Origin: a virus
Reading direction: 5' to 3' (one strand)
Length of the DNA: 64,000 bases
Virus record (IMG/VR): IMGVR_UViG_3300030202_002193
Location: 1 to 64,000 of that record
This document shows, piece after piece, positions 22,064-49,508 of the stretch. Both the position numbers and the translations under genes were made by a program. The notes beneath the pieces were generated by a model. It had not been told where the DNA came from. It did not search any database and saw only the letters and a program-made list of their open reading frames with translations. Position 1 is the stretch's first letter, and each line of letters starts with the position of its first letter.

Positions 22064-23467
22064 TCACCCCAATGTTCTAGAAGAAGTACTTCTATTAATT
22101 TTATTATTTACCATATCCCCTATCTTATTTGCGATTCTTCTCATTTCTCCATCGGAAGTATCTCTAGCATTAATGGTAATGTTGATATTAGTAACGCCAC
22201 CGCCACCGCCAACCATACTCCTACTTTTTCTATTAGAATGTACTTTAGAACCTGCTGGAAGATTTACTAGTTCCGGACCCTTTTCTCCTACAAGAGCCAT
22301 TCCTCCATGAGAAGTACCTCCAGCATGGAAAACATCCCAATCGGATAGTTTATCCCAAAGCCACATTGCTATAACCATTACTCCTCCGATTATAATTGCT
22401 GGTAGAAGTATTGGTAGACCATACATCCATAATACCATAGCGGCCAAAGCACCTAAAGCAATTAAAGCCCATTGTTGCCAACTTAACCCCTTAAACCAAT
22501 CAATAGCCGCATTCCAAGCATCTTCAGCAAGTTGAGCCAAAGCAGAAAGACCTCCCATTAAAACAGTATATCCAAACTTTAGCAAGATATATGCACCGGC
22601 TACTAGTAAATCTAACATTGCAAATGCTAAATCTAAAAGAGAAGCATCTCCCATAAAGAAATCAAATATAGTAGAGAAACTTTCCCAAACAGTATCTATG
22701 GCAGTTGATATACTTTCAAAAAATCCTTCGAATGGTTCTATGAATCCAGTGTATAGAGACTGAACAGTACTCCAAAAAACCTTGAGGAATGTGCCTACTG
22801 CCATTATAACTAACATGGAAATAATAAAGAAGTTGAAGGCTTTAGATAATATAGTTCTTGCTAATTTCATAACTCCTAAAATAAGCCCCCCACTTTTACC
22901 AATCCAAGTAAATTTATTTCTTTTAAGCCAAGACAAAGCATTTCCACCTTTTTCTCTAGCACCTTTTCCAAAGGCCTGAATTTGGTCTAATCTTTTATTA
23001 ACTGCTTCTTTACGCCGACCAGCAAATCCTTTAGCCCCAACTCTAATACTTGTGGATTTATCGTCCATAATTCCTTTTATTCCTATTTGTTTGAAATCGC
23101 TTACCAAGCCCTTCATTCCCTTACCCATACTTTCGAAAGAAGGTATGTTTAGTTTTTCTGCAAAATTAGGGATTTTTAGTTTAGATAATTGCTTAATGCC
23201 TTTTCCTAGTAAAGAATTTTTTTTCATTATTTGTCCCATAGTAGTATCGTAAACCTTTCCTGTTGAAAGTAAACCGGTCTTGAATTTATTCAATATTGTA
23301 AAACTGCCCCTAAAGGTATAAAGAAAACTTTTAGCAAATCCCTTAAACCCGTCTTGGGCATTCATAAAGCCCGAAACCGCTTTACCTGCTTTAGTAAGTA
23401 CGCCTTCGTATTTTTCAGCAGCCTTTTCTGCCTTTTTCATGTCTTCTATCATTCTTTCAAAAGACAT
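22064..23467 (-). CDS. Tape measure protein
   Basis: Helical with hydrophobic segments; HAGG...VGEKGPELV; NINITIN; follows the chaperone genes. Confidence 0.8.
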   Translation of the reverse strand: MSFERMIEDMKKAEKAAEKYEGVLTKAGKAVSGFMNAQDGFKGFAKSFLYTFRGSFTILNKFKTGLLSTGKVYDTTMGQIMKKNSLLGKGIKQLSKLKIPNFAEKLNIPSFESMGKGMKGLVSDFKQIGIKGIMDDKSTSIRVGAKGFAGRRKEAVNKRLDQIQAFGKGAREKGGNALSWLKRNKFTWIGKSGGLILGVMKLARTILSKAFNFFIISMLVIMAVGTFLKVFWSTVQSLYTGFIEPFEGFFESISTAIDTVWESFSTIFDFFMGDASLLDLAFAMLDLLVAGAYILLKFGYTVLMGGLSALAQLAEDAWNAAIDWFKGLSWQQWALIALGALAAMVLWMYGLPILLPAIIIGGVMVIAMWLWDKLSDWDVFHAGGTSHGGMALVGEKGPELVNLPAGSKVHSNRKSRSMVGGGGGVTNINITINARDTSDGEMRRIANKIGDMVNNKINRSTSSRTLG

Positions 23468-24202: not shown

Positions 24203-25828
24203 TCACCCTTGTAATTTCCAATGAGTTTTGACAGTACATTCTTTCAAATCTCTAGGCTTTACCTTTGCTTCAACAGTAATTGGCCCTTTATCTTCCGGTA
24301 TTGTAAAGGTTGCACTTTCTAGGAAATAGTTCTTGAAGGAGATATTAATTTCTTCTCCATTAGGCTTGTCGAATTGCAAATCAATTAGTCCATCAGTGGC
24401 AAAGTTAGTTCCATTTGTAACTGCGCTAGTTCCTGTGTTTTCATTTCTATTGAATAATTCTTCAAAGAGCAAATCATCTGTAACTAAAGCAGTAAAAGAC
24501 AATTCGTACATTCTATTGGATGGAATAGCATCTTGAATAGAAGTATTCCCAACCCCAATGAATCTCTTTTCCTGTAGGTTATTATTAATCGTTAGAGTAA
24601 GATTTGTAATCTTTAAGAACTGCTGGCCGAATGCACTGAAACTTCCTCTAGAGAAAAAGAATGGTTCTAAAAACTCGTCAGATTCATAATTAAATAACAA
24701 AGTATTATCCAAACCTGCACCGCCCCTAGACTCATAATTCTCATTTTGCTTTAGTTTATGAACGGCCCTTGTGTTTAACTCCATAGTCATTTTAACTTCT
24801 TCATTTTCATTAGCGGTCATAGTAAAGGTATTTACTCTATTTCCTCTAGCAATTCGTACAAAATTAGTGTCTTCTAGCGTTGCATTAGTATTGGTATGAT
24901 ATGGGGTATCACCAGACAATTTGCTAATAGTCTGCTCTAAAGAAAACGAAGGAAGTTCGTCATTATTAGATTCTTTGAATTCGTAAGTAATTGCTTTAGT
25001 TATGCTTGAAGGAGTAACAGGAACATCTAGTTTTTCTATCTTCGATTGTAAATCCACATGTTTTAGAATAGGAGGAGTTAGCGCAGTACTAGAAACTCCG
25101 GTAGCCGCATAGCCGGTCTTATAGAAAATAGGTCCACCTTGTTCTGTATGGGTTTCTAAAGTTTTAGCACCCGCCCCTTGGTCGTTAGAATCAATATAAA
25201 TCTCACCAGCAGTACCCGCTAAAGGGTTGGTTATGGTGGAGTTTAACATGGTAGCGGTTAGGCTATCACATTTTCCTAAAGCATAATAAAGCCAAGCACC
25301 GTGATTCGCCATAAAGTTTAGACTACCACCACTAGCAGTTTCTATTCCCTTGTATTGGTAAGTCATGTTTCTTGAGCCGCCAAGAGCAAGGTTCATTTGC
25401 TTTACTTCAACTTCTACATTAGGAAATTCTGCACTTTCTAAAAGACCAAGCCAATTATCAGCATTTAGTCTAGCAGTAGAAGAACCAGTAGAATATCTTT
25501 GGCCAACGCAAGGTGCGCCATATGGCCTAATCACACAAAAATATCCGCTAGTAGCAGTAGCAGTATGGGCCGGAGTAATCTGTATAGAAGTAGAAGAATT
25601 TCCCGTAATAGTACAAATAGAATTAGGAGTGGTAGCCGAACTATTGTATATTTCTACAGTGCATCCTACATAAATATCTTCCACTAAAAGATAAGAATTT
25701 TGGAAATCTGCTACAGGAATTAGGTTAGTGGTACTACTAGTACTATCGTTCAATTCTATGTATAAATGCGTTTCAGGAATGAATGTTAAACTTGCGCCGC
25801 TTCCTAAAAATATATCTGTGTTTGTCAT
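24203..25828 (-). CDS. Major tail tube protein with inserted domains
   Basis: LPSFSLEQ, VNTFTMT, ITNLTLTINNNL tube-like motifs; upstream of the chaperones. Confidence 0.75.
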   Translation of the reverse strand: MTNTDIFLGSGASLTFIPETHLYIELNDSTSSTTNLIPVADFQNSYLLVEDIYVGCTVEIYNSSATTPNSICTITGNSSTSIQITPAHTATATSGYFCVIRPYGAPCVGQRYSTGSSTARLNADNWLGLLESAEFPNVEVEVKQMNLALGGSRNMTYQYKGIETASGGSLNFMANHGAWLYYALGKCDSLTATMLNSTITNPLAGTAGEIYIDSNDQGAGAKTLETHTEQGGPIFYKTGYAATGVSSTALTPPILKHVDLQSKIEKLDVPVTPSSITKAITYEFKESNNDELPSFSLEQTISKLSGDTPYHTNTNATLEDTNFVRIARGNRVNTFTMTANENEEVKMTMELNTRAVHKLKQNENYESRGGAGLDNTLLFNYESDEFLEPFFFSRGSFSAFGQQFLKITNLTLTINNNLQEKRFIGVGNTSIQDAIPSNRMYELSFTALVTDDLLFEELFNRNENTGTSAVTNGTNFATDGLIDLQFDKPNGEEINISFKNYFLESATFTIPEDKGPITVEAKVKPRDLKECTVKTHWKLQG

Positions 25829-26579: not shown

Positions 26580-26852
26580 CTACTTAAATTCTACCCAAAT
26601 AGTGTCTTGGCTAGTCTGTTGTATTTTATATTCTGGATGATTATTAATTTCATTAATAAAATCTTGAGGAGTAATTCCATGCGGATGTGCAGAAACCACA
26701 TTTGGTCTCCTATCTTTATTCTCGTCAAATCTAACCATGACGGCATTAGGTCGGCTTTGTTGTAGAACATATTTAACCAATTTAATAAAACTTCTAGGGC
26801 GCATCGGCCCCGCTTGCGGTAGTTCGTTTTTAATTATTTTTTTCCAATCCAT
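26580..26852 (-). CDS. W-x-x-I-L-K leader protein (MDWKKIIKN)
   Basis: Shared N-terminal leader; GAGTGA RBS. Confidence 0.7.
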   Translation of the reverse strand: MDWKKIIKNELPQAGPMRPRSFIKLVKYVLQQSRPNAVMVRFDENKDRRPNVVSAHPHGITPQDFINEINNHPEYKIQQTSQDTIWVEFK

Positions 26853-30154: not shown

Positions 30155-30796
30155 TTAATCCTCTCCTTCTGCTTGTACCCCTTGTTTAATCATTAGATGG
30201 TTTAGTCTGTTAGTCAATATATTAATTTCCCCAACGATAGTAATTGCTTCTTCAGTAGGCGTACTATTATCTCCTAATGTGGGAGGTTTAATAAGCCATC
30301 CGGCGGAAACTAAACTAGACACATCTTCTTTACTTAATGTATTTAATGGGCCTCTCCTATTCATTTTTGGAATTTTTGGAATAAATGCTTTGAATTCTAA
30401 ACCATGTTGTTCTGCCAAAATCTGTTGTTGCAACATTTCCATTTGTCTATGTATTCCGGAATGTTTGGGACAGTATGTTCCTCGCATTGGCCTACCTTTG
30501 GTTACATGAGATAAAGGAATTGGTGGCCGCATATAGTCTCCGCTATCCCATGTATGGTGCATTCCGCAAACCACGCAACGGTCCTTTAGATTAAACTTGT
30601 AACTATATTTAATTTTCAAAAAGGATTTCTTTTCCGGTACTAAAACCTTAACCAATTCTTTCAATTGTTTCTTTGGTTTTATGTTGATGCACTTATATTC
30701 TTCTATCGGCCCACTTGCTCTTGCTCTTTGCAACGGTGGCAAAAATGCCGACGGTGCAGTTGTATTCATTTGTCCTATTATATTTTGTTGAAACAT
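30155..30796 (-). CDS. Zn-binding hypothetical protein
   Basis: CVVC...CPKH. Confidence 0.7.
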   Translation of the reverse strand: MFQQNIIGQMNTTAPSAFLPPLQRARASGPIEEYKCINIKPKKQLKELVKVLVPEKKSFLKIKYSYKFNLKDRCVVCGMHHTWDSGDYMRPPIPLSHVTKGRPMRGTYCPKHSGIHRQMEMLQQQILAEQHGLEFKAFIPKIPKMNRRGPLNTLSKEDVSSLVSAGWLIKPPTLGDNSTPTEEAITIVGEINILTNRLNHLMIKQGVQAEGED

Positions 30797-30811
30797 TTTT
30801 CATTCCTCAGT

Positions 30812-31216
30812 TTACATATAGTCCGGTATATCCCAAGACCCATAAGAAGTATTCTTATCCCACATCTGTAGCATTTCTCCACTTTGGGCATCATCGGGAA
30901 CAAAATTATATCCTTGATTATCTAAAGCATATGCGATTAAATGATAGAGATTTTCGCCATATCCTCTTCTCATAAATCTAGAGTCTGTTCTAACATCTTT
31001 TGCTTGAAAGGTATCGTCATCTATCTTTTCTGCATAAGCCCTTGTTATTTGCCTACCTTCTTTATCAATAATATTAGCATCCAAAGATTCATCGTGAATA
31101 GAAACTGACATTTTTAATTTTTCATCACTTTTGTTGTCTAGAAACATGGCAGTTGTTTCATCTCCCCTAATAACTATATTAGAAATGCGGTTTTGTTTTA
31201 ATATTTTTTGCCACAT
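30812..31216 (-). CDS. GNAT-fold acetyltransferase-like protein with leader MWQKILKQ
   Basis: VRTDSRFMRRGYGENLY motif A; QS..MW. Confidence 0.7.
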   Translation of the reverse strand: MWQKILKQNRISNIVIRGDETTAMFLDNKSDEKLKMSVSIHDESLDANIIDKEGRQITRAYAEKIDDDTFQAKDVRTDSRFMRRGYGENLYHLIAYALDNQGYNFVPDDAQSGEMLQMWDKNTSYGSWDIPDYM

Positions 31217-31234
31217 AGTAATCAATAATCCTCT

Positions 31235-31603
31235 TTAATATCTTTCATCTAGTTCAAACTTACCTTCTAATTTGTTTCGGGTTCCCTCGGCAGTATTGGA
31301 TTGTCTAGTATCGGGAACATAGTTTTTGGAAGGAGATTCTTCTTCTTTTAGTTTAATAACATAATACATGGTTGGGGAAGCAAGACTTTGAAATACTCCA
31401 TCTTCCATTTTAACTACCTTTCCCTCTTTAGCACTACCAACAACAGTATAATTTATTTCTTTGGCCATTTTTTTTATCCAAGCAAAAGCATCATCCCTGT
31501 CTGTAAAGTCCTTTGTTTCAGGTTCATAGTCTCCATCACTGTCTTGTAATTTGAGATATAACACTATTTCGTTATCCTTTTGTTTTAATATTTTTTGCCA
31601 CAT
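31235..31603 (-). CDS. Leader protein (MWQKILKQ)
   Basis: First ~25 nt identical to those of the 31216 gene. Confidence 0.75.
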   Translation of the reverse strand: MWQKILKQKDNEIVLYLKLQDSDGDYEPETKDFTDRDDAFAWIKKMAKEINYTVVGSAKEGKVVKMEDGVFQSLASPTMYYVIKLKEEESPSKNYVPDTRQSNTAEGTRNKLEGKFELDERY

Positions 31604-31613
31604 TTTAATTCCT

Positions 31614-31973
31614 CTAATTTTCTTCTATTATTGAATATCTATCCTCTTGTTCTTTTCGCATATATGTAATTGTCTTTACATGAATATTTCTGCTATATCT
31701 TTTAATTACTAAATATGCGTTTTTCTTTTTCTGCCTAACTAATTTTACAATGATTGTAGTTTTTTTCGGTAGTTGTCCTCGATTAAGTTTTCTTTCTATA
31801 GCGTTTTTGATTCTTTTCATTTTAATATCGGGGAATCTTAATTGTAAATTGTCACTAAAATGTTTGGTTAAAAAAATCTTTACTTTCTCTCCATTATTTA
31901 ATTTTAAAAAATATTGTTCGGCAGTTTCTTTGATACTGTCGTATGGGTTTACCTTTAGAATCATTTTCCACAT
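31614..31973 (-). CDS. Leader protein (MWKMILKV), basic, possible RelE/DUF4258-like fold
   Basis: FLTKHF...R motif; C-terminal IHVKTIT. Confidence 0.6.
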   Translation of the reverse strand: MWKMILKVNPYDSIKETAEQYFLKLNNGEKVKIFLTKHFSDNLQLRFPDIKMKRIKNAIERKLNRGQLPKKTTIIVKLVRQKKKNAYLVIKRYSRNIHVKTITYMRKEQEDRYSIIEEN

Positions 31974-31978
31974 AGTAA

Positions 31979-32641
31979 TCAATAATCCTTCAGCATCGTC
32001 ATTACTCCACGATACACCATTTCCGGTTGAGATTTAGCCGACACAATATATTTGAATGTTGGGATGCCCTTATCATTAAGCCGTTGCATCCCATATTTGA
32101 AAGGTCCGAATATAGGATGGTCTTGTATGTCTCCGTCATATTTGTGTTTTTCTCCCCAAATATCGTATTTATTAGCCCATATAGCAACTGCTATAGGGTA
32201 GTCTTGTTCTTTTTTCTTTTTTCTATTGGGCCAAGTATTAGCACAAATGGCATCTACTAAAAATTTCCAAGCGAGTTGGTGGTCTAGATTAGCCCCGCTA
32301 TCTAAATGTCTATGGTCAATCATAAAAATAATGTAATTCACCTTTCTTTTCTTCATATCAGAAATCCATTCTTTCCAATAGAATGATTCTCCCCCGACAT
32401 CTGCTGATTTTAGAGTATGGATTTCTCCTTCAATTTTTATTGTTTTTCTAGTTCCTTTATGAAGGCCGACTGTTCTTTTTTTAATTTCAGGAACTTCTCC
32501 TCTAGTTCTAAGTTGATGATTAAGAGTTGTCTTTCCTACCATAGTTGCCCCATAAATTCCAAATTGTATGGCGTGTATTCTTTTGTAAAATGCTATCGCC
32601 GCTTCTGTTATTACAATAGCGAAACCTGCTAGTACTGACAC
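31979..32641 (-). CDS. Arf/Sar-like small GTPase with N-terminal hydrophobic helix
   Basis: G1 GATMVGKTT, G2 RTVG, G3 DVGGE, G4 NKYD, G5 SAK. Confidence 0.88.
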   Translation of the reverse strand: MSVLAGFAIVITEAAIAFYKRIHAIQFGIYGATMVGKTTLNHQLRTRGEVPEIKKRTVGLHKGTRKTIKIEGEIHTLKSADVGGESFYWKEWISDMKKRKVNYIIFMIDHRHLDSGANLDHQLAWKFLVDAICANTWPNRKKKKEQDYPIAVAIWANKYDIWGEKHKYDGDIQDHPIFGPFKYGMQRLNDKGIPTFKYIVSAKSQPEMVYRGVMTMLKDY

Positions 32642-32643
32642 AT

Positions 32644-32865
32644 TCAATCACCAAAGGTATGTGACCATGCAGATTGTAGGCCGTCTAAGCACCATCCTAA
32701 GATATTGATATCAAATACTCCTAATATATTTCCAATTAGAAATGACGCTAACGCCGCACAACTTCCCCAAAAATAAGCCCTAAATCTTAGAAACCAAATA
32801 TCAGCAGAATGCGCTCTTTGCAAATCATATGCCATTGCGCCTTCATCAAAGCCAGTAAAAACCAT
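32644..32865 (-). CDS. Small membrane protein
   Basis: Hydrophobic C-terminal half; GGTGA RBS. Confidence 0.7.
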   Translation of the reverse strand: MVFTGFDEGAMAYDLQRAHSADIWFLRFRAYFWGSCAALASFLIGNILGVFDINILGWCLDGLQSAWSHTFGD

Positions 32866-34403: not shown

Positions 34404-35747
34404 TCACTGAATGTTGGTAATTTTACCTTGACCCTTGAAGAAAGAACAACCCATTTCACCGATAGTACGGTAAAGTGCTTGGTTTCCTAGACGACCAACA
34501 CCGAATGGGTTTCCGTTGGAAATACCATCTTCGAAGTATTGTGTAGGTTTCATAACTGCCAACCAAATGTGGTCAGTATCAAGGAATAGCAAATCGCTTA
34601 GTTTGCTAGATGCGCCTCCTGTAGAAGCCATATCCTTACAAGGAATTAGTGGGATGTCGTAGTATGTTGCAACTCTAAATCCAACTTCAGCACCCTTTAC
34701 TCCACGAACTCCATTTACAGTAGGAACGATTTCCTTTCTATCCATGAATCTTTCTTGGCTTTGTAGCAAATCAGCAACCGCTTGAATAGTATCATATCCT
34801 GTTAGAATTACCTTTGGAGAACCGCCAGCAATTCGCAAGTTGCGAATCATGTTGTTAAGTAGAGTTAGAGTTAGAGAACGAACATCTCCACTAGCATATC
34901 CACTTCCAAAGTCTACTTCAGCATCTAGGAAAGAAGCCGCAGAGAATCTTTCATCTCCGTAAATCTTACCCAAGTTGTTTGATGCACTTGTGGTATCGGT
35001 TGCAATAACTCCACCATCAATAGCCAAAAGTTCTGCACGACTTGTAACAATCTTGTTTAGTGAAAGATAGTTTCTCTCGATGTTAGATAATGCAGATACT
35101 TCACCATAGTTTTCTAGTGGAGTTAGAAGCATCATGTTTTGTGCTTCTGCGTGAGCAATTCCCATATCTTCACGCATTTGCGCTCTGATGTCACCAATTC
35201 CATCATCAATCTTTGCCATTTCCATAGCCAACTCGGAGAAGTCGAATTGATGTGCAACAGTCTTAGGACTCATAAATAGTTGAGCGTAAGTAGGAGCCAT
35301 AGAACCTAGACCGTCTGCCGCAGTAGAAAGTCCAGCGTTTTCTGCTACACCACCGATTTCGTCAAATTGTGCATCATCAGCACCAATTCCACCGCCAGTA
35401 CCATCTCTCTGTAGTGATTCAGCAAGTGTGTTTCCGGAACCACCGAAAGGTCGGCTTTTCAAAACTCTCCATCCGGAAGAAGTGTAAGGTCTCTTTGCAA
35501 TCATTGAAAGAGCATTTACTTCACGGTTTAGCATTGACCAAACCTTTTGTCCGTAAAGAACATTGTAAAGTCCGGTTGTTGTAGAAATTCCTGTTACGCC
35601 GCTTGCGCCAGCGTCAGCGATATCGTGAGCAGTTTGTACTCCTTGTACCACTCCCGCTTGCTTTAGAATATCGTTGCCGCCAAATGCGCCACCGAATCCG
35701 TATGTTTCTGCTTCTAAGTCTCTAATAGTGTTAATATATCCTGTCAT
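34404..35747 (-). CDS. Major capsid protein (HK97 fold)
   Basis: Follows the prohead protease; PKTVAHQF, TYYDIPLIP, LFLDT, QGKITNI. Confidence 0.9.
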   Translation of the reverse strand: MTGYINTIRDLEAETYGFGGAFGGNDILKQAGVVQGVQTAHDIADAGASGVTGISTTTGLYNVLYGQKVWSMLNREVNALSMIAKRPYTSSGWRVLKSRPFGGSGNTLAESLQRDGTGGGIGADDAQFDEIGGVAENAGLSTAADGLGSMAPTYAQLFMSPKTVAHQFDFSELAMEMAKIDDGIGDIRAQMREDMGIAHAEAQNMMLLTPLENYGEVSALSNIERNYLSLNKIVTSRAELLAIDGGVIATDTTSASNNLGKIYGDERFSAASFLDAEVDFGSGYASGDVRSLTLTLLNNMIRNLRIAGGSPKVILTGYDTIQAVADLLQSQERFMDRKEIVPTVNGVRGVKGAEVGFRVATYYDIPLIPCKDMASTGGASSKLSDLLFLDTDHIWLAVMKPTQYFEDGISNGNPFGVGRLGNQALYRTIGEMGCSFFKGQGKITNIQ

Positions 35748-35760
35748 TTTATATTCCCCC

Positions 35761-36936
35761 TCAATTTCCAGCAAGCCTGTTCAAGTCGGCCCAACTCATG
35801 TTAGCAACATCATCCATTGACGGAATTGCCACGGATGGTGCAGTTTTGGATTTGAGAATTTCAGATGTTTCCGAAGAAAATGACTTTCTCAATTCAGCCA
35901 ATTCTTCTTTAAGTGCGCTAACTTCAGACTTTGCATCATAGTTAGCCTTGGAAATAATAGTTTCTCTTTCTGAAACTTCAGACTTAAATCTGTTAGCGAA
36001 AGTCTTTTCTAAGTTTCCTAGAGCAATCTTTTCTAGTTGTTCTGCTTTGTATTCTGAATATGCTTTCTCGATTACATCAGGAGAAAGGTTTAGTGAAGTA
36101 ATTTCACCGTTGTCAAAGGCCTTAATGACCTTTGCTTGCTTTTCTCCTACTGGCTTGCCACCACTAATTACTACACGGTCAGCAGGTTCCCCTGTTTCTC
36201 CTTGTAGCGAAGTTTGTGCCTTGTATTCTACATCCATGTATTCTGAAGTCTCTACTTCAGCATCCATCAATTCTTCGTCCATAGCCGCCGCATTCATTTC
36301 TAAGTCTGCGTCTGCCGCAGGGGATTTCTCCTCTTCTTCTTTCCTTAGAGTATTGACTTCCTCTAATAGAGTGTCAAGTTCCTCTAATGCCTTTTCTAGT
36401 TTGTCGGTCATTTTTGTTCCCTCTTTTTCTTGTTTCAAAATGTCAAATTTCGCTTCAGGATTAATTCCTTTTTCGCATATGGTGACTTCGTGTAATTCTA
36501 GTTTGCTAATTTCGCTATATTCGCCTAATTCCGAATTTTGCTTCTTAACTTTCCGAAGTGCTTGTCCCCCTATGCTAAAAGACCTTAATGTTCCTTTGCG
36601 AATTCCCCTGTTTATTTCTTTTGCTTTTTCGATGTCATCTCTTAATTTTATTACTACAAAAAATCCCACATCATCTACTTCAGTTTTCCATATTTTTCCA
36701 TTTTTATCTCTATATGATTTTACTACTTCTCCTACTTGGACATTTGAATGGTTTGTCATTACATTTCTAAATTTTGCATTCTCCATGTATTTTTCTACTG
36801 CATCTTCTAGTGCTTTAAGTGTGATTAAATCATTTTGCTTATCTACGATTTCTATGCTTGCATATCCCCCAATCATTAAATCGTCTTGGCTTTTGAGAAT
36901 CAGGAAATCATTGTTTTGTATAACGGCAGTTTCCAT
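35761..36936 (-). CDS. Prohead protease with C-terminal scaffold
   Basis: GYAS...DKQND...H...SFSIGG...LHEVTI...GINPEA (HK97-type protease); acidic coiled-coil tail. Confidence 0.92.
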   Translation of the reverse strand: METAVIQNNDFLILKSQDDLMIGGYASIEIVDKQNDLITLKALEDAVEKYMENAKFRNVMTNHSNVQVGEVVKSYRDKNGKIWKTEVDDVGFFVVIKLRDDIEKAKEINRGIRKGTLRSFSIGGQALRKVKKQNSELGEYSEISKLELHEVTICEKGINPEAKFDILKQEKEGTKMTDKLEKALEELDTLLEEVNTLRKEEEEKSPAADADLEMNAAAMDEELMDAEVETSEYMDVEYKAQTSLQGETGEPADRVVISGGKPVGEKQAKVIKAFDNGEITSLNLSPDVIEKAYSEYKAEQLEKIALGNLEKTFANRFKSEVSERETIISKANYDAKSEVSALKEELAELRKSFSSETSEILKSKTAPSVAIPSMDDVANMSWADLNRLAGN

Positions 36937-36976
36937 TTTCCTCAACTCTTCGTTTTTTAATTAGGTATTTAATGCT

Positions 36977-39490
36977 TTAGGGTTTTTCCGTATTTATTGA
37001 CAACTTTGCATATTTATCGTTATTGATATTCCAAATCCCTTTATCGCCTTCTTTGTCTGCTGGCTCTTGTTTATAGCCAGTCCAAGCCAACCACATTTCT
37101 TTATCGTCTACTGGGATTACTCTAAAGTGCATTTTAGTTTCAAATTTATTCCCCTTTATGAAATACTCATGGTAGCCATCTCTTTGTATTCCTAGAGTAA
37201 TATCTCCTTCGTCTATTACTTTGGAATCAGGGGAGATGGTAGTAGCGACTTCAGCAGGGAATTTCCCCGCTTTACCGAATAGGTTGAATATATCATCATC
37301 CGAATTAATATCAATAGTCCAATACATTGTCTCTTCAGATAATTTAATCGCAAATGTTAGGTTATCGTCCTTTCTAGAATATACCTTAAACTGGCCCTCC
37401 CTATATTCTGAAGGAGTTTGATATTCTTCTTCACTTAACATTATCTTATCAGAATCCGCCATGAATTTTTTCTCCTTATGGCTAAAAGTAATTCCATCTC
37501 TAGAATTAAACCATTGAGTTAATTTACCCATATTGCTATCCAATATACTATCATATAACCTTCCGACATCCTTAACTAAAAAATTATGTAGTTCTTTCAC
37601 AGTCATAGGCCCTCTTTCTTTCAATCTTTGAAATACTGAAACAGTTAATTCACTTTGTTTAGTTTTCATTATGTTTTCTGCATCGGCCTTCCAAGAATTT
37701 AAATTCATCATAGCATGTTTAGACATTAGATTATCTTCTTCGAATTCATACAAAGCAAAGCCGTCCATAGATTTTAGAATTGCTTCCCCATGAACATAAT
37801 CTGTAATCAGAATTCCTTTTTCTAAAGCCTTGGCCTTGAACTTCAGACTCTTTTTAGTTTCCTTAGATAGCATCTCTAATGTAACTATCTTATCAGGATA
37901 TTCTACTTCGGGTATTTCTATAACACTAGAACCATAAATGGTATATTTCTCACCATTGGTTTTTACTTCGTCCACCTTAACTCTAAGTATGTCTCCTATA
38001 TCTACATCCACTTTGGTATTATTTGCCTTACCTACATTCATATATTTTATTTTATCTAATTCTTTAATGTGCTTTCCTTCTCCTTCTGCCGGACCAGCAC
38101 CCAATGTGTATGAAAACATATTTGATTTTGTTTTCTTTTTATCTAAGACGATTAAATCTAAATCGACAAATTTCTTCCACTTAACCCATTTAGGATTTTT
38201 CTTAGTGCCTATGTAATATGTAGAAGTAATGTCTTTAATAACCACTCCTTCAGCAGTAGGCATCTCCATAATTTCTTTACTATATTCTTCAATGTCTTTT
38301 ATGCTATCCGCAATTCTAGTATCTTTCTTGGAAGGGAATTGCAAATGGTCATCCGAGTGCATGGAATAATTATTGAATAGAATGTTTATTCTTTCGGATA
38401 GTTCTTCTGAAGCCATATTTCTCTCATCATGTCTCATGATATCAAAAACATGAGCCTTTAATTCAGCATCCTGATATTGGTTCTTGAATACATGGGAAAT
38501 AGTATCTGCACGATGTAGGGCTTCTTCTCCATCGAACAAAATTAATTCTGCATCAAGAATACAATCTCCGAAGTGCTTTCTCTTAATTACCTCGACTTGC
38601 CTTTCACATTTGTCAGTAATGTCCTTTTCATTGTAAGAATATATTTTTACATTGTTATCTATCTTGTGAATCTGTATTCTCATACCATCATATTTTTCTT
38701 GAACAACCCATTCTCCGCTAAAGCCTTGTAATTCTTTGAGGTCATCTATCTCAAATATTCTATACATTGGCTTATTAGGTATTATGAAATCTACTTGGGC
38801 CTTTTCTTCTTGAGATTTTTCTGCTTTTTTAATCTCTACACCTAATAGGCGATTCCATTCTTCCTCCGTGTTTTTAGATAGGAAGAATAGTTTTAGTAGA
38901 GATAGACCATTCTTAAATCTAGATTCTATTTTCTTAGAATCCTTTCCATCTCCATAATGCTCTGTAATATATAACGGGATATCTTTAGGGTCTAAGTCTA
39001 ATCCTTTTAGACCAATAGTAATATCGTCCGGCTCTATATCTTTTATTGAATATAATTCATCAGATAAAACTTCATCATCGTTTCGTAGGGCATAATGAAT
39101 AAACTTAATCATAGTCCCGCTATCTTCCATTAATGCTTCTAGGACATTTCCTTTGAAGCGTTTTGCAAATGGGTCTTGAACTTCGTCTGATTCGAAGCGT
39201 AGCATTTTAATTGCATTGTAGACCTTCTCGGCAGTAGGAGTTTCAGGATTCATTGCATCTTTAGATTGTAAGATGTCTTCTGCTAGGTATTGTTCTAGTT
39301 GCCCGCCCAAGTAATCTAAATTATCGTATTCATCTCTTAGGTCTTCTATTGTTTTTCTCCATCTAGAGCCATAGGTTTTAGAATCACTCTTAGCAGATAG
39401 GTAGGCCACTCTAGTCTTTTCGAAGAGAGAGAGGATTTTATCAGAAACGGATTCAGTTTCCTTCTCAAATAGAAGGCCGGTCAGTGGCAT
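36977..39490 (-). CDS. lig: ATP-dependent DNA ligase with N- and C-terminal extra domains
   Basis: QEKYDGMR, ILDAEL, HVFDI, EGVVIK, WVKWK, OB fold. Confidence 0.92.
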   Translation of the reverse strand: MPLTGLLFEKETESVSDKILSLFEKTRVAYLSAKSDSKTYGSRWRKTIEDLRDEYDNLDYLGGQLEQYLAEDILQSKDAMNPETPTAEKVYNAIKMLRFESDEVQDPFAKRFKGNVLEALMEDSGTMIKFIHYALRNDDEVLSDELYSIKDIEPDDITIGLKGLDLDPKDIPLYITEHYGDGKDSKKIESRFKNGLSLLKLFFLSKNTEEEWNRLLGVEIKKAEKSQEEKAQVDFIIPNKPMYRIFEIDDLKELQGFSGEWVVQEKYDGMRIQIHKIDNNVKIYSYNEKDITDKCERQVEVIKRKHFGDCILDAELILFDGEEALHRADTISHVFKNQYQDAELKAHVFDIMRHDERNMASEELSERINILFNNYSMHSDDHLQFPSKKDTRIADSIKDIEEYSKEIMEMPTAEGVVIKDITSTYYIGTKKNPKWVKWKKFVDLDLIVLDKKKTKSNMFSYTLGAGPAEGEGKHIKELDKIKYMNVGKANNTKVDVDIGDILRVKVDEVKTNGEKYTIYGSSVIEIPEVEYPDKIVTLEMLSKETKKSLKFKAKALEKGILITDYVHGEAILKSMDGFALYEFEEDNLMSKHAMMNLNSWKADAENIMKTKQSELTVSVFQRLKERGPMTVKELHNFLVKDVGRLYDSILDSNMGKLTQWFNSRDGITFSHKEKKFMADSDKIMLSEEEYQTPSEYREGQFKVYSRKDDNLTFAIKLSEETMYWTIDINSDDDIFNLFGKAGKFPAEVATTISPDSKVIDEGDITLGIQRDGYHEYFIKGNKFETKMHFRVIPVDDKEMWLAWTGYKQEPADKEGDKGIWNINNDKYAKLSINTEKP

Positions 39491-42941: not shown

Positions 42942-44582
42942 TCAACCAACTCTTCTTTCTGTTCTTGAATCTACATTCTGATTTCCGGCTTCTCTAGGAA
43001 GTCCAGTAAACCTCTTATCCGGCCCTGTCTCCATACTCGGTTTATTTCTAGTTGCCGGTGGTTGCGATTTTCCGCCTTGTGCCATTTGTTGTTCCATCAT
43101 CTGCCCCATTTGGGAAGCATCGAAATTAGTTCCAGCGTAGGGGTCCAATTCTATTTCCCCTCCTTCTTCACCTTCTCCGCCACCCATTTCGTTTTCTTTA
43201 GGTTCAGGTTTGGAGAAAGTGAAATTTCCATCTTCATCCATTTCAACTTCAAATCCTAGATTTTTAGTAGAGGCCGCAATATTAACTTCTATCTCCCTTT
43301 GCCGAAGTTTTGCTATTTCATCCTCTTCTTCGCTAGGCGGTAGTCTCAAATCCCAATCAGTAATTCCAAATTGAGTAGTTAAGAACGGGAATACATATTC
43401 ATTGTAAACATTCTGTGCCATTTGTACTGCTCGATTAGTTACAAGAATCTGCATACCTTCATTATTTAATCCTCCACTAGCAGTAGAATCTGCCATGAAT
43501 ATTTTACTAACTCCGTAGAATGCAGAAATCCTATCTCTCAAATCATCTTTAACTGCAACATATTCCATTTCTTTTAGACTATCCATAAACTTAATCCATT
43601 CAATAGAACCCTTGCCGCCTTCTGCTTCTATTCCCATTACTGGAATATAGTGAGGGTCTTGTTCCATTCTTTCTTTAACCCCACGCCAAAAACTCATCAT
43701 GGATTCCATGTTTCTAGTTTGAACTGCAAGCATTCCTCTTGGCATCCTACTTTTAGTATAAGAGGCATTTACATAATTTTCCATAGCAAGTAAAGTCATA
43801 ATATGGTTGTATAAAGTAAGAACTGGAGAAAGACCGTATAGCCTACTAGGACTATATTTACTAAAGTGTAATACTTCTCCCTTAATGAAATACTGGTCAT
43901 CTCCTTTTGCTCTATTAACATAATGAACAGGGTACAATGAATCTCCACAAACTTCGCAACTATCATGTGCTTCAGAAGCAATAAATTCTCTATGATGAAT
44001 ACAAGTAAATCCTTTAGTTCCTCTTACACCATCTTCATCTGCATAAATGTGCATAGTAACAGGGTCTCCTCTAAAGATTTCTTTTATCCTGTGCATTCTT
44101 ATCTTCCCATTGCCATCAATATAATATTCCTTGACAAATACAATATAGGCATCATCCATGATATTCAAATCATCTTCTAACTCTTTAAGTACATCAATGA
44201 ATAACTGTTCTGACGAATTGACATATCCTTCCAGAAACTTCTCCGCATATTCTAATTGCTTTACATCGGGTAATTGTAGATTAGTACTTTCACATCTAGA
44301 ACATTCTTGGACGGGCCGTTGGTGTTCTTTACCGCAATCCTGACATCTTGCTTCATAGGACTTCTCCCAAGTATATCCTCTACGGAATACTTCTTGCTTT
44401 AATTGAGTTAAACAAGTTCTAGTAATTACAGAGTTTTGCACTATATTATAGATGAGTGGTCCGTTTAGCATTTGGGCTGGAGTTTTTTCCTGTATGCCAA
44501 TATTGTAGATTTCCCTATCAGTAGGAGTAGGAGTGGTCTTCCTAAATAAATTAGTCAAAGAGAATCTTCGCTTTTCTGCCAT
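42942..44582 (-). CDS. Portal protein with two Zn-ribbon insertions
   Basis: EVLHF...LYGLSPV, PRGML, ISAFYGV; CQDC..CSRC and CIHH..CEVC. Confidence 0.9.
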   Translation of the reverse strand: MAEKRRFSLTNLFRKTTPTPTDREIYNIGIQEKTPAQMLNGPLIYNIVQNSVITRTCLTQLKQEVFRRGYTWEKSYEARCQDCGKEHQRPVQECSRCESTNLQLPDVKQLEYAEKFLEGYVNSSEQLFIDVLKELEDDLNIMDDAYIVFVKEYYIDGNGKIRMHRIKEIFRGDPVTMHIYADEDGVRGTKGFTCIHHREFIASEAHDSCEVCGDSLYPVHYVNRAKGDDQYFIKGEVLHFSKYSPSRLYGLSPVLTLYNHIMTLLAMENYVNASYTKSRMPRGMLAVQTRNMESMMSFWRGVKERMEQDPHYIPVMGIEAEGGKGSIEWIKFMDSLKEMEYVAVKDDLRDRISAFYGVSKIFMADSTASGGLNNEGMQILVTNRAVQMAQNVYNEYVFPFLTTQFGITDWDLRLPPSEEEDEIAKLRQREIEVNIAASTKNLGFEVEMDEDGNFTFSKPEPKENEMGGGEGEEGGEIELDPYAGTNFDASQMGQMMEQQMAQGGKSQPPATRNKPSMETGPDKRFTGLPREAGNQNVDSRTERRVG

Positions 44583-48746: not shown

Positions 48747-49150
48747 GATTCTTCCCTCTTCATTTGGTTTTTCTTAGACTTCTTATCGTCTTTGATAGGT
48801 CCACCTTTGGCCCAAGTATAGCAAGTTCTATCTTCATGACACTTGAAATCGTGCATCCAACAATATCCTAATCCACCTTTTACATCTACGATAGGCATAC
48901 AATCTTTCATCCTTGGACTAATATCAAAAGCGATGCAATTAGAACACTTAGATTTCTTAGCGGCTTCAACTGATGTGTCCCAATGTTCCGCTACCTTCTC
49001 CCAATAATCAGCAGGTTCATCTATATTCAAAGGACCGTATTTTATATCCTCATCCTCGATAGCGGCATCTCTATTCTTTGTGTTTAGTTTTAGATTCTTA
49101 GTTGCCGGAGGGCAAGTTAATTGCTTCAATAAGATTTGCCAATCATTCAT
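48743..49150 (-). CDS. Leader protein (MNDWQILLKQ), Cys-rich
   Basis: CPPAT...YGP...CSNC...GYC...KC...TC..W. Confidence 0.75.
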   Translation of the reverse strand: MNDWQILLKQLTCPPATKNLKLNTKNRDAAIEDEDIKYGPLNIDEPADYWEKVAEHWDTSVEAAKKSKCSNCIAFDISPRMKDCMPIVDVKGGLGYCWMHDFKCHEDRTCYTWAKGGPIKDDKKSKKNQMKREES

Positions 49151-49508
49151 CTTCCTCATCCTCTTCTTCCTCTTCAGGAAGCGGTAGTCCATCTAAAAGA
49201 ATATAATCTCCACTCTTATGTTGAACAACATTTTCCATAGAATCTAACAGTCCTTCTAGTTCTTCTCCGGACATCTTAGTTGCTTCTTCTAGTGGTTCTA
49301 GACCCGAAGCCCCTCCTTCTTTTTCCAAAGTAGAAACTATTGTTTCTTCTGCACCTTCAGACTTTTTCGCCCGTAAGTGTTTGAAATCTTCACCAGTAAT
49401 TTCTCCATCACCGTCTGCGTCAATGTTTTTTTGTTTTCCATACAGAATCTTTTCTGTCTCTATTTTTTCTGTTCCGCAATGTGCTTTCAATACTTTTTTC
49501 CAATTCAT
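49143..49508 (-). CDS. Leader protein (MNWKKVLKA) with EF-hand loop and wHTH-like tail
   Basis: DADGDGEITGED. Confidence 0.75.
   Translation of the reverse strand: MNWKKVLKAHCGTEKIETEKILYGKQKNIDADGDGEITGEDFKHLRAKKSEGAEETIVSTLEKEGGASGLEPLEEATKMSGEELEGLLDSMENVVQHKSGDYILLDGLPLPEEEEEDEEDE

Follow-up and report, generated by a model that had tools for sequence, protein, structure and literature searches.

The stretch analysed here, called the window below, comprises positions 1 to 64,000 of IMG/VR virus record IMGVR_UViG_3300030202_002193, which is a linear and complete virus genome of 84.5 kb (CheckV 100%). Between a gene for a predicted small GTPase and a gene for a Cys/His-rich 213-aa protein (p213), the window carries an intergenic slot that is filled by three small genes, c119, c122 and c134. 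From the comparison with related loci we consider it likely that this slot is hyperplastic, that is, that gene cassettes are stacked, swapped and lost in it by unequal, microhomology-mediated recombination between virus variants, while a short N-terminal peptide tag is kept, probably for loading the products into the virus head. A 22-nt repeat found twice in the array appears to be a by-product of the stacking and not a recognition site for an insertion enzyme.

The 22-mer, AGGATTATTGATTACTATGTGG, has just two copies in the whole 84.5-kb genome, both exact and both on the minus strand (Table 1). No third copy was found at up to three mismatches, and none is expected (0 in 100 shuffles). The first-pass annotation of this DNA had described the exact recurrence and had taken the repeat from the end of the GTPase gene, and both observations hold. 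In the native copy, AAG GAT TAT TGA reads as K-D-Y-stop of the 222-aa gene and is followed by the spacer TTACT and by ATG TGG, the start of c119. The second copy appears to be a scar of cassette stacking, and the two together bracket the c119-c122 block. The identity ends at the Trp codon because ATG-TGG is invariant, and tag positions 3 and 4 differ between the cassettes; no cut is made at that point. The first 19 nt of the 22-mer, up to the ATG, also precede the 213-aa gene at four empty sites of relatives (loci L013, L014, L021 and L068), where the ATG is followed by TTT CAA of that gene.

The joints in the slot are 4–18 nt long and all cassettes are co-oriented. At the joint between c119 and c122, AGGAATTAAA runs into ATG-TGG of c122, and the similarity to L088 reaches the ATG and then stops. 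The joint behind c134, ACTGAGGAATGAAAA, is comparable to TTGAGGAATGAAAG at empty-site relatives such as L060. A likeness between the ribosome-binding site (RBS) of c122 and the repeat of another array, at 54–55 kb, had been pointed out earlier; it is real but trivial, GAGGAAT being the genome-wide RBS consensus, with 40 copies in the genome, 20 of them directly before an ATG, and also the native RBS of the 213-aa gene in relatives. Over their first 26 nt (31578–31603 in c122 and 31191–31216 in c134, minus strand), c122 and c134 are identical, a run put at about 25 nt before. As none of the 868 pairs of unrelated-cargo tag genes has a longer stretch in common, and as the tag codons differ in the c122 and c134 orthologs, it points to a local gene-conversion or recombination tract between the neighbouring tags. 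The array is not an assembly artefact, since it is found intact, with 0–5 differences, in contigs of four independent studies. In one seawater sample, a minor contig with the same joint diverges exactly after ATG-TGG into an L053-type cassette, MWEEVLKAAKRL. Skips of low similarity in metagenomes (e.g. from 30303 to 32147 in run X14, 36-nt side) were left out of account.

A GTPase relative is encoded in 279 IMG/VR stretches; 80 of these loci were fetched and six more were found via the cassettes, and both genes that flank the slot are present in 78 of these marine virus loci. In 46 of the 78, the closest relatives (L003–L006, 91% aa) among them, the GTPase and 213-aa genes are direct neighbours, which bears out the proposal of a genuine cassette slot here, second to the array at 54–55 kb. 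The gap at empty slots is 4–10 nt, or 38–54 nt in two clades. In the other 32 loci the slot is filled by inserts of 230–1182 nt with one to three genes, and the inserted genes fall into 11 families without detectable mutual similarity, all starting MW-[KQFE]-x-[IV]-[LI]-K. On the tree of the flanking genes, the slot content changes at least 21 times and the occupancy at least 19 times.

Where two loci have nearly the same flanks, a cassette can be all that sets them apart. Loci L024 and L025 have flanks that are 99.8% and 96.5% identical, and the cassette is the difference; the indel runs from ATG to ATG and is flanked in L025 by a 7-nt direct repeat, AATATGT. The same holds for L074 and L076 (flanks 98.2% and 100% identical), with an indel bounded by ATG on both sides, and in the pair L063 and L066 the cassette lies between the GTPase stop and the native RBS of the 213-aa gene. 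Indels or replacements bounded by a repeated joint were found in these three pairs and in L013/L012 and L019/L016. The 3′ ends of the cassettes vary across relatives (TAAAATG, TAATG, TAGTATG, or with GAGGAAT), and the joints are often 0–5 nt long. In L012 (5460–5487), an unrelated cassette (MWFDILKN..) is followed by about 25 nt that match the end of the c119 family (last codons, stop and RBS), a remnant of an earlier cassette left when its cargo was replaced.

Each of the three cassettes of this genome is the single or the first cassette at the same slot in other loci. A homolog of c119 (87% aa) stands alone in L088; homologs of c122 (about 61%) are single cassettes in L083 and L085–L087 and the first of two in L084; and a homolog of c134 (72%) directly follows the GTPase gene as the first of two in L032/L033. 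The relatives of c119 and c122 were found by alignment-based queries; word-based searches of viral contigs with single queries gave none. The cassette DNA shared with L088 is 90.6% identical (core about 97%) and the flanks 70.7%, and between L007 and L075 the cassette is 92.6% and the flanks 68.6% identical. Since cassette identity exceeds flank identity in both cases, cassettes are exchanged between distant lineages.

Copies of the GTPase tail at internal joints occur in five lineages, and they are independent and differ in length and endpoints. The copy in the window comprises 16 + 6 = 22 nt and is exact; that in L084 has 29 nt with one mismatch; that in L078 has 8 + 6 = 14 nt; that in L043/L044 is a tail with a 3-nt deletion; and that in L032/L033 has 11 nt and an indel, followed by spacer and ATG-TGG, and resembles the tail of another lineage. 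The earlier suggestion that the process does not depend on one particular repeat is thus well founded. The L043 joint begins as the native p213 spacer, which reaches as far as AAAGGA, and continues as GTPase tail from GGA onward. At the crossovers, microhomologies of 4–6 nt, located in the RBS motif, are present: AGGA in the window, GATAAA in L084 and AAAGGA in L043.

In the mechanism that we propose, a cassette is promoter-less and is made up of a spacer of 4–5 nt, ATG-TGG, the 7-residue tag MW-x-x-[IV]-[LI]-K and, behind the tag, unrelated cargo that ends in a stop codon. The AAGGA in the last GTPase codons (K-D-Y-stop) is the predicted RBS motif for whichever gene follows, and the first cassette would be translated from it. 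Lineages would hold different single cassettes, and co-infecting variants or misaligned genome copies would recombine unequally, the short sequence after a cassette X being joined to the GTPase tail before a cassette Y at a few common bases, usually at an RBS motif or at ATG(T). The product would read GTPase, X, copy of the GTPase tail, Y, p213, and the 22-mer of the window would be the copied tail plus the invariant ATG-TGG. Cassettes would be lost when ATG(T) starts or other short repeats recombine with each other, and they would move between lineages by ordinary homologous recombination in the flanking sequence or at their own edges.

Three other explanations of the array were weighed. It is very improbable that the 22-mer is a functional translation element, an RBS with a coupling signal, selected to be identical and convergent rather than copied. 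Its AAGGA motif and set distance to the ATG would suit such a role, and a retained tail offers a ready-made RBS; however, quite different sequences precede other tag genes, among them c122, which lies between the two copies, and the GTPase codons and stop have no role in the intergenic place of the copy. Moreover, the 16 non-coding nt are exact within one genome, with lineage-specific variants elsewhere, which argues for copying.

It is very improbable that c119, c122 and c134 are in-situ tandem duplicates that have diverged and of which the common 5′ ends are left over. BLASTP aligns only the 8-residue tag of the three proteins, and the identity of the cargo in forced alignments is 21–24%, although their sizes are similar, all three start MW..ILK and two have 26 nt in common. 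Each gene has orthologs that stand alone at the slot in other lineages; the products are of different character, c134 being GNAT-like, c119 basic and c122 acidic; and the first two copies do not have the upstream 16 nt in common.

The insertion mechanism suggested in the first-pass annotation is not supported as a dedicated one. In its integron- or transposon-like form, a system would recognise the repeat or the tag DNA, insert site-specifically and leave a target-site duplication, as the promoter-less and co-oriented cassettes entering precisely after the GTPase stop, the exact 22-nt repeats around c119-c122 and a similar 22-nt joint in the array at 54–55 kb might suggest. We regard this as very improbable and largely refuted: the 84.5-kb genome has no match to tyrosine or serine recombinases (PF00589, PF00239; control genomes were positive), no inverted repeats or hairpins occur in 30700–32100, no promoter or terminator signal stands above chance at the joints, the cassette 3′ ends are variable, the duplication differs in length and endpoints in every independent case, the copied sequence is whatever lies upstream (in L032 another lineage's tail), and the tag DNA varies at synonymous sites. 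With no recombinase, hairpin, promoter or conserved 3′ site, unequal microhomology-mediated recombination is therefore favoured over an integron-like system.

In the genome, 17 genes, all on the strand of the morphogenesis genes, start M-x(0-2)-W-x-x-[ILVM]-[ILVM]-[KR], and a stricter form of this tag motif stands at the N-terminus in 15 of the 112 genes, where chance would give 0.016. Across the relatives, the tag (MW..[IV][LI]K) begins 30 of 30 inserted genes from the 11 families. Among 52 non-redundant tag genes, Leu is encoded by all six codons, Ile by ATT or ATA, and Lys by AAA and AAG in a ratio of 35:17, near the usage of the genome. Because the synonymous codons vary close to background, the tag is conserved as a peptide and not as DNA, and it would be kept by selection on the protein. 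Two further tag genes of the window have hints of function. A 90-aa gene (26580–26852, minus strand; MDWKKIIK) has a weak match to the GH-E HNH/EndoVII nuclease family (E 0.008) and may encode a tagged nuclease, and the product of a 121-aa gene (49143–49508, minus strand; MNWKKVLK) contains a loop that resembles the calcium-binding loop of EF hands (Pfam EF-hand_7, E 1e-4, below cut-off).

A partner for the tag is suggested by the head maturation protease, which is fused to a scaffold-like tail. Across 54 unique orthologs, this protein contains three motifs that resemble the tag and end in Lys: F-x-I-[LI]-K-[SA] near the N-terminus (residues 14–18; 54 of 54), A-[KR]-F-D-I-L-K where the protease domain ends (F-D-I-L-K at 167–171, invariant in all 54) and I-x-K-[AS] near the C-terminus (I-x-K at 363–365). 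These are candidate self-cleavage sites, and the protease is a candidate for recognising cassette tags at their end. The match between the I-L-K end of the tag and the invariant motifs at the domain borders suggests a loading and cleavage tag like the capsid targeting sequence (CTS) of phage T4. Such a tag would probably load cargo, e.g. the GNAT-like c134, into the prohead, and the head protease would then cut after the Lys. The place of the slot in the head–tail module fits such packaging.

Several observations weigh against recombination at the slot and head-loading by the tag as set out here. The recombination events are all reconstructed from comparisons, none being directly observed, and the 4–6-nt microhomologies could easily arise by chance in AT-rich, RBS-rich joints. 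The entry of a first cassette into an empty slot has no homology explanation, the overlaps being at the level of TGA or GA only. The closest relative with an empty site is about 13–15% diverged in DNA, so the order of stacking in this genome cannot be fixed; a sliding-identity comparison of the window with the nearest empty-site relatives, which are too diverged for this test, gave no import tract beside the joint. A near-clonal population keeps the three-gene array unchanged in four studies, so the turnover is not fast on that scale. As for the tag, the residue following its Lys is variable and the major capsid protein (MCP) itself has no tag-like motif.

The cassette products were compared with known proteins and folds. 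The Pfam and PHROGs searches gave no significant family for c119, c122, c134, the GTPase or the 213-aa protein. The product of c134 is probably a minimal GNAT-fold acetyltransferase: its neighbours in the ESM Atlas are viral GNAT clusters (0.96), it carries RRGYGE, a candidate for the acetyl-CoA motif (R/Q-x-x-G-x-G/A), and its Pfam match to FR47 has an E of 0.18, below cut-off. In the AlphaFold2 model (predicted local distance difference test, pLDDT, 78.5) the tag forms the first helix, residues 2–8, and in Foldseek all the PDB matches listed are GNAT-fold enzymes (E about 1e-2, template modelling score 0.4–0.54). The model of c119 (pLDDT 51.6) was too poor for a fold search.

Cassettes are also found on the other side of the GTPase gene. 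In L022 and L026, a tagged gene (MWKDILKS.., MWWNILKK..) lies where a 73-aa gene meets the GTPase gene, and it has 54% identity (E 3e-67) with the cassette behind the GTPase gene in L043/L044; one cassette family is thus found before the GTPase gene in some viruses and behind it in others. In three of four sampled populations of the strain studied here, 100 nt at 32652–32753, from the 3′ part of the 73-aa gene to the GTPase start, are replaced by 652 nt. The 652-nt variant lies in contigs of runs X3, X9 and X14, which otherwise match the window near-perfectly, and X4 has a diverged 100-nt version. Because L022 and L026 carry a tagged cassette at exactly that joint, it is a further cassette slot, polymorphic within the strain. 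The cassette mobility raised earlier therefore stands for lineages and for the two sites flanking the GTPase gene, but not for distant arrays: no exchange with the array at 54–55 kb was found, c119, c122 and c134 have no cargo paralogs elsewhere in the genome, and searches for cassette families F1 and F2 in five near-complete relatives hit the known site only, so that movement to distant arrays is unsupported.

The gene upstream of the slot encodes a predicted Ras-like small GTPase. The motifs G1 (GxxVGKTT), G3 (DxGGE), G4 (NKYD) and G5 (SAK) are present in order and invariant in 12 orthologs; a profile search of PDB gave Ras-family proteins only, weakly (E of at least 0.17), and the single sequence had no matches in PDB. 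The Pfam matches, all below threshold, are small GTPases. Between the GTPase and 213-aa genes, a clade-specific 38-nt spacer, TAGAAACCTATACAAAGAAA.., is present in L027 (6669–6708) and L045 and stays downstream of the cassettes in L032, L034 and L043; this conserved spacer may be a regulatory or RNA element.

Every gene between about 10 and 62 kb of the window lies on the minus strand. The order of the morphogenesis module along this strand is portal, head maturation protease, MCP, small proteins, GTPase, slot, minor tail protein and tape measure, and the slot therefore lies inside the late (head–tail) operon, between the protease–MCP genes and the tail genes. The MCP matches proteins of tailed viruses of archaea only, namely the Haloarcula viruses HVTV-1/HCTV-1 (24%) and viruses of methanogens; the group is therefore regarded as magrovirus-like, and the virus, which is uncultured, on the basis of its capsid protein as a putative magrovirus-like archaeal tailed virus. 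A blastn search of an isolated-phage collection with the region gave no matches. Between the portal region and the head protease, within the structural module, a gene for an 837-aa protein (36977–39490, minus strand) has a region like ATP-dependent DNA ligases (PHROG 114, E 3e-24).

Table 1. Features of the cassette slot and of the surrounding morphogenesis genes in the window.
Feature	Position	Strand	Description
Portal	42942–44582	-	Morphogenesis module
Head maturation protease	35761–36945	-	Fused to an acidic, coiled-coil-like scaffold tail; PHROG, E 9.5e-16
MCP	34404–35774	-	Between the protease gene and the GTPase gene
GTPase	31979–32647	-	Predicted Ras-like small GTPase, 222 aa, N-terminal hydrophobic segment; upstream resident of the slot
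22-mer, copy 1	31968–31989	-	Native joint; GTPase tail and stop, TTACT spacer, ATG-TGG of c119
c119	31614–31973	-	Cassette 1, family F9; basic, 119 aa, start MWKMILK
Joint c119–c122	31604–31613	-	AGGAATTAAA; RBS and spacer found before the ATG of the 213-aa gene in L088, L064 and L067
c122	31235–31603	-	Cassette 2, family F4; acidic, 122 aa, start MWQKILK
22-mer, copy 2	31211–31232	-	Non-coding GTPase-tail copy, spacer and ATG-TGG, after the c122 stop and heading c134
c134	30812–31216	-	Cassette 3, family F6; 134 aa, start MWQKILK
Joint c134–p213	30797–30811	-	ACTGAGGAATGAAAA; retains the native RBS of the 213-aa gene
p213	30155–30796	-	213 aa, Cys/His-rich; right border of the slot, orthologs in all complete loci
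Minor tail protein	24203–25828	-	Downstream of the slot
Tape measure protein	22064–23467	-	Downstream of the slot, after the minor tail protein

Cassettes of a comparable kind are known from the hyperplastic regions of T4-type phages, where PeSL (promoter-early stem-loop) elements of about 100 bp carry a promoter and a terminator hairpin (Arbiol et al. 2010, PMC2839356; Comeau et al. 2014, PMC4122927). In both cases close relatives differ by the gain, loss and replacement of small ORFans at repeated joints, no dedicated recombinase takes part, the indels are accounted for by recombination at the joints, and insertions are steered to intergenic places where they do no harm. A further mark of PeSL shuffling is excised mini-circles that hold one cassette and a chimeric joint; the material compared here consisted of assembled contigs. 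The slot differs in its joints, which have 4–20 nt and no hairpin or promoter, so that its cassettes depend on the operon transcript; in its shared sequence of 14–29 nt; in its common element, of which one part is coding (ATG-TGG and the 7-residue tag) and the other a tail copied from the upstream gene; and in its virus, which would infect archaea, whereas PeSL phages infect bacteria. Integrons also have promoter-less cassettes in one orientation that are stacked behind a fixed gene and expressed from upstream signals. However, the slot has no IntI and no attC/attI structure, its joint lengths are variable and its repeat is copied from the neighbouring gene, and it does not appear to be an integron. 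A tandem array of paralogs formed by duplication and divergence was considered and rejected, as no homology of the gene bodies was detected beyond the 8-residue tag and the genome holds no cargo paralogs.

Mosaic joints at gene boundaries are found in lambdoid phages and mycobacteriophages. Amplifications of T4 tifA give tandem arrangements through recombination at very short homologies, as outlined in bioRxiv 10.1101/2022.04.14.488369. The likeness to such systems lies in tandem arrangements or mosaic joints that arise from very short common sequences, often at gene boundaries; the slot differs in stacking different genes, not copies of one, all with the same tag.

The closest parallel for the tag may be the internal-protein (IP) locus of T-even phages, which is described as polymorphic and as sharing an N-terminal capsid targeting sequence (Repoila et al. 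1994, as summarised in PMC3012670). From that summary, both systems comprise diverse, fast-changing and unrelated small proteins with a short conserved N-terminal leader in common, and both loci differ between related viruses and lie with the head genes. Judged against the same summary, the tag of the slot is unrelated to the T-even leader, being MW-x-x-I-L-K and ending in Lys rather than Glu, and its roles in head-loading and cleavage are predicted. T4 packages and delivers the enzyme Alt, which would be a parallel to the GNAT-like c134. We know of no description of tail-copy scars and start-codon-anchored joints for the IP locus.

By this analogy, the slot could be a plug-and-play dock for effectors delivered by the virion, an archaeal counterpart of the T4 internal proteins with a different tag and protease specificity. 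We regard this as a serious possibility, somewhat short of an even chance. A gene that gained the 7-residue tag behind the GTPase tail would be translated at once from the resident RBS, and its product would enter the prohead by means of the tag and be set free by the head protease with a cut after the Lys.

Magroviruses rank with the most abundant viruses in the surface ocean and infect hosts that have not been cultured. To our knowledge, next to nothing is known of how they diversify and take over cells, and neither a cassette slot nor the tag is mentioned in the searchable magrovirus literature. In the slot studied here, the stacking, exchange and loss of accessory genes without a dedicated enzyme can be resolved to the base pair, and this traffic appears to be tied to a universal tag. 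If the slot is indeed a dock for virion-delivered proteins, wild magrovirus populations would exchange, by recombination at the joints, a wide range of injected proteins that take over the host or counter its defences, such as the minimal acetyltransferase. And if the tag is a signal for head-loading and cleavage, it would make a catalogue of the probable injected effectors of archaeal viruses recognisable by sequence alone and would give a simple means of bringing foreign proteins into particles of this kind.

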